A DNA stretch of 64,000 bases. Origin: Eledone cirrhosa. Its lineage: Eukaryota. The stretch is taken from contig OZ024748.1 in NCBI GenBank assembly GCA_964016885.1, positions 33,914,001 through 33,978,000 of the forward strand. Reading direction: 5' to 3'. Shown here one piece after another: positions 36,201 to 39,579 of this stretch. The notes beneath the pieces were generated by a model. It was not told where the DNA came from and searched no databases. It worked only from the letters and a program-made list of their open reading frames with translations. Both the position numbers and the translations under genes were made by a program. The first letter of the stretch is position 1. Each line of letters begins with the position of its first letter.

Positions 36201-36233
<33 letters not shown>

Positions 36234-36525
36234 AAAACAAATAACGAAACGAAATTAAATTTCGTTTCGTTTGTAACTCACTTTTGTATGACTGACGCTT
36301 AAACAATTAAATTAAAAATGTACATCCACATATGTATACTGAAATACTAGTATGCATATGAATACACACACGTGTACATATGTAGATGTACCGAGTTTTT
36401 CACTGGACACTTTACTGTGAGTGTCCAGCTATTCTGTATGTAAACACACAGACAAACCGGTTTTTAGAGTCATACTGGTTTTCGAGGAAACACCTTTCCT
36501 CTATTCTCCAGAAAGCCAGACAAGG

Positions 36526-36570
36526 AATACTGGACTAGTTTCGATGTTGTTACATCTCATCAGCAATATT
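36526..36570 (-). ncRNA. Canonical minimal type I hammerhead (also at 36992-37036, 37458-37502, 37924-37968)
   Basis: aatattg-CTGATGA-gatgt aaca acatc-GAA-ACTAGT(palindrome)-C-cagtatt. Confidence 0.88.
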
Positions 36571-38347
36571 TACCTATCTTCCGGCCTTTCTAGAGAATCG
36601 TAAAAGCACATATCGTTATATGCTTCTTCTATGAAAATTAGTAGTGGGCAGACTAATTTGCATAGAGCGTGAGTACGTACCGGTTCAGCGGAGACGATAA
36701 AAACAAATAACGAAACGAAATTAAATTTCGTTTCGTTTGTAACTCACTTTTGTATGACTGACGCTTAAACAATTAAATTAAAAATGTACATCCACATATG
36801 TATACTGAAATACTAGTATGCATATGAATACACACACGTGTACATATGTAGATGTACCGAGTTTTTCACTGGACACTTTACTGTGAGTGTCCAGCTATTC
36901 TGTATGTAAACACACAGACAAACCGGTTTTTAGAGTCATACTGGTTTTCGAGGAAACACCTTTCCTCTATTCTCCAGAAAGCCAGACAAGGAATACTGGA
37001 CTAGTTTCGATGTTGTTACATCTCATCAGCAATATTTACCTATCTTCCGGCCTTTCTAGAGAATCGTAAAAGCACATATCGTTATATGCTTCTTCTATGA
37101 AAATTAGTAGTGGGCAGACTAATTTGCATAGAGCGTGAGTACGTACCGGTTCAGCGGAGACGATAAAAACAAATAACGAAACGAAATTAAATTTCGTTTC
37201 GTTTGTAACTCACTTTTGTATGACTGACGCTTAAACAATTAAATTAAAAATGTACATCCACATATGTATACTGAAATACTAGTATGCATATGAATACACA
37301 CACGTGTACATATGTAGATGTACCGAGTTTTTCACTGGACACTTTACTGTGAGTGTCCAGCTATTCTGTATGTAAACACACAGACAAACCGGTTTTTAGA
37401 GTCATACTGGTTTTCGAGGAAACACCTTTCCTCTATTCTCCAGAAAGCCAGACAAGGAATACTGGACTAGTTTCGATGTTGTTACATCTCATCAGCAATA
37501 TTTACCTATCTTCCGGCCTTTCTAGAGAATCGTAAAAGCACATATCGTTATATGCTTCTTCTATGAAAATTAGTAGTGGGCAGACTAATTTGCATAGAGC
37601 GTGAGTACGTACCGGTTCAGCGGAGACGATAAAAACAAATAACGAAACGAAATTAAATTTCGTTTCGTTTGTAACTCACTTTTGTATGACTGACGCTTAA
37701 ACAATTAAATTAAAAATGTACATCCACATATGTATACTGAAATACTAGTATGCATATGAATACACACACGTGTACATATGTAGATGTACCGAGTTTTTCA
37801 CTGGACACTTTACTGTGAGTGTCCAGCTATTCTGTATGTAAACACACAGACAAACCGGTTTTTAGAGTCATACTGGTTTTCGAGGAAACACCTTTCCTCT
37901 ATTCTCCAGAAAGCCAGACAAGGAATACTGGACTAGTTTCGATGTTGTTACATCTCATCAGCAATATTTACCTATCTTCCGGCCTTTCTAGAGAATCGTA
38001 AAAGCACATATCGTTATATGCTTCTTCTATGAAAATTAGTAGTGGGCAGACTAATTTGCATAGAGCGTGAGTACGTACCGGTTCAGCGGAGACGATAAAA
38101 ACAAATAACGAAACGAAATTAAATTTCGTTTCGTTTGTAACTAACTTTTGTATGACTGACGCTTAAACAATTAAATTAAAAATGTACATCCACATATGTA
38201 TACTGAAATACTAGTATGCATATGAATACACACACGTGTACATATGTAGATGTACCGAGTTTTTCACTGCCCACTACTAATTTTCATAGAAGAAGCATAT
38301 AACGATATGTGCTTTTACGATTCTCTAGAAAGGCCGGAAGATAGGTA

Positions 38348-38392
38348 AATATTGCTGATGAGATGTAACAACATCGAAACTAGTCCAGTATT
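38348..38392 (+). ncRNA. Canonical minimal type I hammerhead (also at 38814-38858, 39280-39324)
   Basis: Same motif on the plus strand in the inverted units. Confidence 0.88.
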
Positions 38393-39548
38393 CCTTGTCT
38401 GGCTTTCTGGAGAATAGAGGAAAGGTGTTTCCTCGAAAACCAGTATGACTCTAAAAACCGGTTTGTCTGTGTGTTTACATACAGAATAGCTGGACACTCA
38501 CAGTAAAGTGTCCAGTGAAAAACTCGGTACATCTACATATGTACACGTGTGTGTATTCATATGCATACTAGTATTTCAGTATACATATGTGGATGTACAT
38601 TTTTAATTTAATTGTTTAAGCGTCAGTCATACAAAAGTGAGTTACAAACGAAACGAAATTTAATTTCGTTTCGTTATTTGTTTTTATCGTCTCCGCTGAA
38701 CCGGTACGTACTCACGCTCTATGCAAATTAGTCTGCCCACTACTAATTTTCATAGAAGAAGCATATAACGATATGTGCTTTTACGATTCTCTAGAAAGGC
38801 CGGAAGATAGGTAAATATTGCTGATGAGATGTAACAACATCGAAACTAGTCCAGTATTCCTTGTCTGGCTTTCTGGAGAATAGAGGAAAGGTGTTTCCTC
38901 GAAAACCAGTATGACTCTAAAAACCGGTTTGTCTGTGTGTTTACATACAGAATAGCTGGACACTCACAGTAAAGTGTCCAGTGAAAAACTCGGTACATCT
39001 ACATATGTACACGTGTGTGTATTCATATGCATACTAGTATTTCAGTATACATATGTGGATGTACATTTTTAATTTAATTGTTTAAGCGTCAGTCATACAA
39101 AAGTGAGTTACAAACGAAACGAAATTTAATTTCGTTTCGTTATTTGTTTTTATCGTCTCCGCTGAACCGGTACGTACTCACGCTCTATGCAAATTAGTCT
39201 GCCCACTACTAATTTTCATAGAAGAAGCATATAACGATATGTGCTTTTACGATTCTCTAGAAAGGCCGGAAGATAGGTAAATATTGCTGATGAGATGTAA
39301 CAACATCGAAACTAGTCCAGTATTCCTTGTCTGGCTTTCTGGAGAATAGAGGAAAGGTGTTTCCTCGAAAACCAGTATGACTCTAAAAACCGGTTTGTCT
39401 GTGTGTTTACATACAGAATAGCTGGACACTCACAGTAAAGTGTCCAGTGAAAAACTCGGTACATCTACATATGTACACGTGTGTGTATTCATATGCATAC
39501 TAGTATTTCAGTATACATATGTGGATGTACATTTTTAATTTAATTGTT

Positions 39549-39579
<31 letters not shown>

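Follow-up and report, generated by a model that had tools for sequence, protein, structure and literature searches.

Two-armed insertions of a hammerhead retrozyme in the genome of Eledone cirrhosa point to mobilisation by Penelope-like elements

How a short repeat without protein-coding capacity comes to lie in a (TA)n tract as two tandem arms that point away from one another is the question raised by a 3.3-kb array of 466-bp hammerhead ribozyme units in a 64,000-nucleotide stretch of the Eledone cirrhosa genome (contig OZ024748.1, positions 33,914,001 to 33,978,000; hereafter, the window). The array is almost certainly a non-LTR (long terminal repeat) retrozyme, as a first-pass annotation made from the sequence had proposed. 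Tandem Repeats Finder (TRF) resolves it into two 466-bp tandem arrays, at 36231-38269 (4.4 copies) and 38267-39550 (2.8 copies). These are mutually inverted: the left arm carries the ribozyme on the minus strand and the right arm on the plus strand, so that the 3' ends of the RNA face outward. A single position, 38143, deviates from the repeated unit across the 3.3 kb, and the tandem and inverted arrangement of near-identical units that had been described at the outset is thereby confirmed. When units are numbered from the first base after the predicted ribozyme cut (window position 38852), the outer limit of the left arm falls at unit position 302, termed S1 (the “tailed” or long end), and that of the right arm at unit position 233, termed S2 (the short end). 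The arms meet at 38267-38269 in a 3-base overlap (9 bases with two mismatches by BLAST), which brings together unit positions of approximately 128 and 348. Both outer ends adjoin (TA)n tracts identified by TRF, at 36201-36233 on the left and 39549-39594 on the right.

Seven type I hammerhead cores are present, one per unit. On the plus strand they occupy 38355-38385, 38821-38851 (predicted cut 38851/38852) and 39287-39317, and on the minus strand, reading from 36563, 37029, 37495 and 37961, they occupy 36533-36563, 36999-37029, 37465-37495 and 37931-37961. Each consists of a 7-bp stem I, a 5-bp stem II and a palindromic stem III, and ends in GUC. The cores were correctly recognised in the first-pass annotation; its label “minimal” should instead read canonical type I, by the definition in the accessible portion of PMC4209133. 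The outcome of the hammerhead model search that had been suggested was mixed: no match was obtained in the window at the Rfam gathering score, and the core region matched Hammerhead_HH9 at E 5.8e-8, its 37.6 bits falling short of the 52-bit cut-off. No other ribozyme family was found in Rfam up to an E-value of 10. The predicted fold of a single unit has a free energy of -158 kcal/mol (z -9.0; 0 of 100 shuffles equally stable) and includes the hairpins named earlier. The palindromic stem III is computed to cost about 6 kcal/mol in a monomer and to yield a duplex of -6.2 kcal/mol between two copies. Finally, the unit is non-coding, as had been claimed, with a GC content of 34-36% and a longest ATG open reading frame (ORF) of 19 aa in the sense and 50 aa in the antisense direction. 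It therefore lacks the reverse transcriptase (RT) and GIY-YIG ORF of an autonomous Penelope-like element (PLE). Nor does it resemble plant LTR retrozymes, having a type I core, tandem units and a 12-13 bp target duplication rather than a type III core, two LTRs and a 4-bp duplication, or viroid-like elements with ribozymes on both strands, since a pattern scan of the unit found no hammerhead on the antisense strand.

The genome-wide copy search that had been proposed returned at least 347 unit matches in at least 38 scored regions of the 3.0-Gb genome. Subfamily B, approximately 93% identical to the array unit, yielded at least 1014 first-look candidates. From these, 26 other subfamily A loci among the matches listed, 38 of the best B loci and two loci found by pattern were taken for study. 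A more distant relative, C (66% identical, with a 468-bp unit), was found in the flanks of fetched loci. It keeps the hammerhead core, with both partners of base pairs changed in stems I and II and with GUA as the triplet before its predicted cut. Such both-side changes in these two stems are seen across subfamilies A, B and C (five sequences, three independent lineages), which indicates selection on the ribozyme structure. Fragments of relative C were also detected in the window itself by profile search, at 34254-34409, 13078-13274 and 40466-40541, the last with a minus-strand hammerhead core.

Inversion is the normal insertion form of this family. Among 68 loci, scored with a 22-bp threshold, the arms are ordered minus-then-plus in 51, in reverse in none, and 17 are single-armed, six of these with a tiny S2 stub that was noted by eye. 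Outer ends cluster at unit positions of approximately 302 (S1) and 228-233 (S2), and one of each is found in 44 of the 51 two-armed loci; the same end twice was never seen, and the seven loci with one aberrant end reflect a contig edge or apparent later insertions or deletions. With independent ends, 44 mixed pairs would be expected with a probability of 0.5^44 = 6e-14, and the B query, which extends to position 302, favours one S1 end without forcing S2 as the other. Between S2 and S1 lies a “tail” of 69-74 nt that contains a 13-bp hairpin (39113-39141 on the plus strand; also 38647-38675 and five copies in the left arm). The window holds a second insertion that follows the same rule, a subfamily B element at 47358-48023 with a minus arm ending at S1 and a plus arm ending at S2, again in (TA)n, with GUU in place of GUC as its cleavage triplet.

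Flanks are TA-like on both sides in 38 of the 44 loci, in agreement with the earlier claim of integration into (TA)n, and target duplications of 13 and 12 bp occur in two of the six loci with other flanks, indicating that (TA)n is the target and not an addition. Inner ends are spread evenly round the unit (Kolmogorov-Smirnov p 0.11), with no enrichment near the cut site (3 of 102 within 5 nt, relative to 2.4 expected). The longest arm reaches 15.8 units. Out of 44 loci, the arm ending at S1 exceeds its partner in 29 and the arm ending at S2 does so in 15 (sign test p 0.049), in six of the latter by more than one unit, and arm lengths within subfamilies are uncorrelated (rho 0.34, p 0.14; rho -0.04).

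Arm polarity and end pairing together constitute the “inverted copy plus tail” signature of PLEs, and the retrozyme is very probably inserted by PLE machinery through paired priming. According to the accessible portion of PMC8557442, PLE insertions have an inverted truncated copy and a tail of 30-40 bp at one end only, features that are called undefined there. The accessible portion of PMC11167929 describes a PLE protein by which both strands are cut and extended; it initiates at two internal RNA sites, and these bound the genomic tail. Comparable anatomy is found in PLEs of the same genome. For example, PLE-1, a young family encoding a 775-aa RT/GIY-YIG protein, has long and short ends that lie 44 nt apart, and one long and one short end are present in all 12 complete two-armed copies (14 copies examined); since 11 of the 14 were chosen as minus-plus pairs, only the end pairing is an unselected result. 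A truncated two-armed copy of PLE-1 with a long and a short end is located in the window at 14461-16074 (plus strand) and is given for comparison only, having no sequence homology to the unit. PLE-2 is a very young 738-aa family that carries the DKT, CxCX5C, CxxC and CxH motifs given for the Hydra clade (assigned by motifs, with no Pfam match), and it has one long and one short end in 9 of 11 copies. The possibility that S1, which follows a T5 run, is instead the RNA polymerase (Pol) III terminator end of a linear RNA was considered and rejected, as it leaves the many-unit arms unexplained and PLE-1 has fixed ends without T-runs.

Alleles carried by the units provide a record of the template. 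Over 66 loci (excluding L086 and L087, whose sequences are intermediate), 25 alleles are fixed across every unit of the two arms, 15 occur in some units of each arm, and no allele is fixed in a single arm. The same loci contain 222 singletons, along with 19 alleles that recur over part of a single arm, which indicates that the arrays have not simply been homogenised. In the window array, two alleles are present in all units and absent from the 26 other A loci. These locus-private changes are A>G at unit position 3, in stem I (38854, plus strand), and A>G at unit position 373, in a paired stem (38758, plus strand), each found in all seven covering units and in both arms. In L025, L028 and L030, the alternating alleles of the two arms begin in register, as a dimer template would predict, and there are no indels at 327 cut-site crossings, which argues against jumping between cleaved monomers. 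The alleles point to one circular template per insertion. A circle would account for the fixed alleles, the register and the intact cut sites, with a long linear multimer as its main rival.

Both of the private alleles in the window are A>G on the ribozyme strand and lie in A-U pairs. Among 28 alleles common to both arms, 11 are A>G and one is T>C, relative to 9 and 18, respectively, among 138 singletons (Fisher p 0.0012); the A>G share of both-arm alleles likewise differs from that of singletons (p 3e-5), and C>T and G>A are balanced at five each. Restriction to alleles seen in at least three units, from a hand-typed list, gives 7 versus 1 (p 0.036). RNA editing is heavy in coleoids, and the simplest reading of the skew is that adenosine-to-inosine (A-to-I) edits of the template RNA were copied into every unit, although strand-biased mutation or polymerase error at the source locus may also produce it. 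The skew implies that the template was the sense strand, which counts against the antisense version of a self-priming model drawn from PMC3846280 (accessible portion). In the accessible portion of PMC7229834, editing is mentioned only as a possible cause of circle heterogeneity.

The unit may also carry its own promoter. A U6-type upstream element at unit positions 333-346 (38718-38731, plus strand; also 39184-39197 and four minus-strand copies) matches, in 14 of 14 bases, the -80 element of a U6 gene in the same genome, and a TATA-like box (38761-38769, plus strand) lies 43 bases after it. From these positions, the start site is predicted near unit position 409-413, which would place it approximately 55 nt ahead of the predicted cut. 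The element or a close variant is found at -76 to -79, with a TATA box at about -30, in three U6 gene types and in the best U6atac match; only one of six fetched U6atac matches has the element, the other five presumably being pseudogenes. The motif arises in 28 of 20,000 shuffled units, and both relative C and the unrelated family D keep the element, TATA box and ribozyme in the same order. A Pol II small nuclear RNA (snRNA) promoter was rejected as a candidate, the element being absent from 12 distinct U1 upstream regions (of 19 loci) and three U2 upstream regions. Family D (L155, minus strand, about 200-900) is an unrelated hammerhead repeat whose stem III is palindromic; it shares the U6-type element and the distance from it to the TATA box, and is likewise two-armed. 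As a side observation, snRNA promoters in this genome (L048-L067, L166, L172-L190) differ by polymerase, with an octamer-like element at about -78 in U6 and U6atac genes and another short motif at about -58 in U1 and U2 genes. A TATA-like box near -30 is found in all and a motif near -260 in many, and these promoters would be useful for cephalopod expression vectors.

Taken as a whole, the family is likely to be a non-autonomous non-LTR retrozyme mobilised in trans by a PLE from a circular sense RNA. Judging from its motif and position, the internal U6-type promoter would start transcription approximately 55 nt before the hammerhead. By analogy with known retrozymes, two successive hammerheads would release a 466-nt monomer, which a host ligase would close into a circle; the palindromic stem III suggests that the hammerheads probably act as a dimer. 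The highly paired RNA might sometimes undergo A-to-I editing, as the A>G skew suggests. A PLE protein would then introduce cuts about 12-13 bp apart into the two strands of (TA)n or of another AT-rich sequence, and each target 3' end would prime on the same RNA, one at approximately 302 and the other at approximately 228-233, in keeping with the ends and duplications observed. Both copies would circle for a variable number of turns before their 3' ends are joined at short overlaps, as the anatomy suggests, and the outcome would be two diverging tandem arms, clones of one RNA molecule. The retrozyme identity, young age, Penelope-type mobilisation and circular template proposed in the first-pass annotation all find support in the ends, arms and alleles, and systematic inversion, two fixed outer ends, the U6-type element and edit-like private alleles go beyond it. 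It is tempting to go further and suggest, at slightly less than an even chance, that every insertion preserves a single circular RNA molecule in DNA form. Two RTs of a PLE dimer would travel round one circle, each from its own fixed site, in a double rolling-circle form of target-primed reverse transcription; A-to-I edits would become heritable in every unit, and host editing would be a main source of the element's germline change.

Candidates for the partner PLE can be sought among chimeric insertions. At L079:2067-2756, a retrozyme S1 arm is joined to a PLE-2 long-end arm with a 2-base overlap, and (TA)n lies on either side. PLE-2 is on this ground a suspect partner, from a single case that may be a deletion between neighbours. 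A second candidate, L085, in which a retrozyme is joined to PLE-3, was rejected as partner evidence, since the PLE-3 piece differs by approximately 5% from related copies. Fourteen bases of the unit (positions 420-433) also occur in antisense orientation at the PLE-1 long end (E 0.11), which was put down to chance. An intact 738-aa PLE with Hydra-type motifs was observed at L195:908-3121, with a tail of about 87-94 nt; its 40 scored copies are 100% identical over 192 bp, which indicates very recent activity. Another retrozyme chimera (L097:2707-2752, L105:3776-4005) is joined to 42 bp of a short fold-back repeat that is also present in L136 and L142. In L136, a tRNA-like stretch recognised by eye precedes this repeat, suggesting that a short interspersed nuclear element also inserts in two-armed form.

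Several observations weigh against this account. The unit shares no sequence with PLE-1 (3' regions, 25 loci), PLE-2 or PLE-3 (20 loci), and no homology to the unit was detected when the window and 58 PLE loci were searched by profile, in a genome with at least 29,410 first-look PLE candidates. L079, the sole clean retrozyme-PLE chimera, has two long ends and thus breaks the end-pair rule. The loci examined are the best-scoring matches and not a random sample, and four of the six with non-TA flanks have no target duplication. As for the alleles, 10 of the 25 fixed ones rest on one unit per arm or on fewer than three units, some are lineage alleles common to several loci, and the 19 confined to part of one arm indicate that insertion is followed by further change in the arrays. 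The comparison of A>G counts was post hoc, conceived after the alleles had been seen, and covers a small sample of 12 sites; position 50 is dubious in alignment, and the counts without it are 10 versus 1 (p 0.003). A shortage of 5' G neighbours at A>G sites is not significant (p about 0.16). In the promoter, the spacing from element to TATA is 42-43 bp rather than the 46-48 bp of U6-type genes (counted by eye), the -260 snRNA motif common to U1, U2 and U6 is absent from the unit, and two T5 and two T4 runs would hinder read-through by Pol III. Finally, no public contig (Logan, four of six listed runs) spans the private junction at 38267.

A PLE might instead carry out double priming on a parent array's read-through transcripts, long, linear and not cleaved, and no circle would then be needed at insertion. 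Precise unit junctions, fixed ends and common alleles would also be expected from a uniform parent array, the alternating alleles in L025, L028 and L030 fit a mixed multimer, and PLE priming in vitro does not need ribozyme cleavage, according to the accessible portion of PMC11167929. An edit or error in such a transcript would, however, occupy one unit, whereas the private A>G alleles fill all units of both arms. A daughter array with arms of up to 15.8 units cannot outgrow its template without a circle or later expansion, and a uniform private parent array itself requires a monomer bottleneck; a linear template therefore seems unlikely. It is quite improbable that one target-primed complementary DNA (cDNA) folded back and primed itself, the second arm being copied from the first, as proposed for Penelope inversions in the accessible portion of PMC3846280. 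Common alleles would follow automatically, the S1 arm is more often the longer, and both arms start at the same position in L070, L087, L090, L095 and L107, with L094 looking alike. Set against these are the 15 loci with a longer S2 arm and the PLE-1 copies L135, L138 and L140, in which the short-end arm is the longer and does not include the whole of the long-end arm. From an antisense template, a T>C skew would be expected, contrary to the skew observed.

Spread of a satellite at the DNA level, through unequal exchange or rolling DNA circles that merely carry the ribozyme, with inversions being incidental, is largely refuted and has very little probability left to it. The local duplications within arms, represented by the 19 alleles above, are of the kind expected, and the accessible portion of a 2026 preprint favours local tandem expansion from PLE termini. 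The one-way polarity, the two fixed ends with one of each per locus, the target duplications and the strand-specific A>G skew would nonetheless go unexplained. An assembly or library fold-back artefact comes to mind with long perfect inverted repeats, a known artefact type, and with the lack of a public contig across 38267. It is scarcely credible given that 68 loci with differing flanks, arm lengths and private alleles obey one rule, and that short-read contigs of run X1 hold other minus-to-plus joints as well as an S1 end joined to (TA)n. In run X4, of unspecified kind, one 495-nt contig covers the unit as a loop, and no conclusion was drawn from it. No RNA run was listed among the sequencing runs that hold the sequence, an outcome that counts neither for nor against expression.

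The surroundings of the array are rich in other repeats. Two further fold-backs lie beside it, at 35639-36105 and 39623-40082 (arms of 227 bp at 100% and 194 bp at 97% identity), and are probably inverted insertions of other repeats; no ORF longer than 60 aa is present within 34491-36200. Other broken PLE-like ORFs are found at 53292-55434, 3671-4444 (with a GIY-YIG match) and 6780-7148, and RT ORFs resembling long interspersed nuclear elements were recognised by eye, e.g., at 9564-12656, 26165-29302, 41293-44918 and 60426-62492. A 140-bp two-unit repeat occurs in three copies (32009-32264, 52454-52710 and 55717-55972), and the copy at 52454 lies within the 3' region of the PLE-like ORF at 53292. 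The cephalopod origin first proposed for this DNA fits the presence in the genome of molluscan haemocyanin domains in runs of seven, a seven-unit haemocyanin being an octopod trait.

Reverse transcription and insertion of retrozyme circles by PLEs has been proposed from shared ribozymes, co-occurrence and similarity of pseudo-LTRs (pLTRs), and tandem cDNA templated by a circle has been proposed for animal retrozymes (accessible portions of PMC7229834 and the 2026 preprint for the former, and of PMC7229834 for the latter). The PLE-mobilised circular retrozyme favoured here adds insertions with the full PLE footprint and alleles that point to a single circular, edited, sense-strand RNA, i.e., genomic evidence for a life cycle that had previously only been proposed. 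It also bears on the origin of the inverted copy and one-sided tail of PLEs, a question raised in the accessible portion of PMC8557442. Retrozymes are already known as a kind. In the literature searched, which included few subscription papers and some sources in part, neither the two-armed anatomy, single-molecule clonality and inherited trace of editing nor a cephalopod retrozyme was found, and the supplements of PMC7229834 and the 2026 preprint may show such structures. A 466-nt RNA with two mapped start sites, together with intact young PLE ORFs in the same genome, constitutes a small test system, and a PLE protein that integrates a circular RNA at (TA)n by a rolling-circle route could be of interest to tool builders.

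Among known systems, twin priming by L1 also produces inversions, with both target ends priming on one RNA and the two arms copying different parts of a linear RNA. In the retrozyme, by contrast, the two arms begin at fixed sites separated by 70 nt, and both copy one and the same sequence repeatedly. The non-LTR retrozymes of coral, mussel and axolotl (Cervera and de la Pena 2020, PMC7229834, accessible portion) are alike in their non-coding, low-GC tandem units with one type I hammerhead each, their strongly self-paired RNA and the presence of PLEs in the same genome. The unit of 466-468 bp exceeds the 150-450 bp reported there and falls inside the 51-972 bp of the 2026 preprint (accessible portion). 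The accessible portion of PMC7229834 contains no account of two-armed insertions, fixed ends or inherited edits, and the word “inverted” is absent from the paper. Newt satellite 2 and the schistosome hammerhead repeats (via the accessible portions of PMC2220036 and PMC6765202) share a palindromic stem III and an internal promoter placed before the hammerhead in a tandem unit. The newt promoter is of the snRNA Pol II type and the schistosome one of Pol III, whereas the element in the array matches U6/U6atac and not U1/U2, with a 4-bp shorter spacing. Finally, relative to endonuclease-bearing PLEs (accessible portions of PMC8557442, PMC3846280 and PMC11167929), the retrozyme encodes no protein, its tail is 69-74 nt instead of 30-40 bp, its target duplication is 12-13 bp instead of 8-10, and its arms are multi-unit tandem arrays; with these elements it has in common diverging arms, a one-sided tail, two reverse transcription start sites, a preference for (TA)n and a short target duplication.

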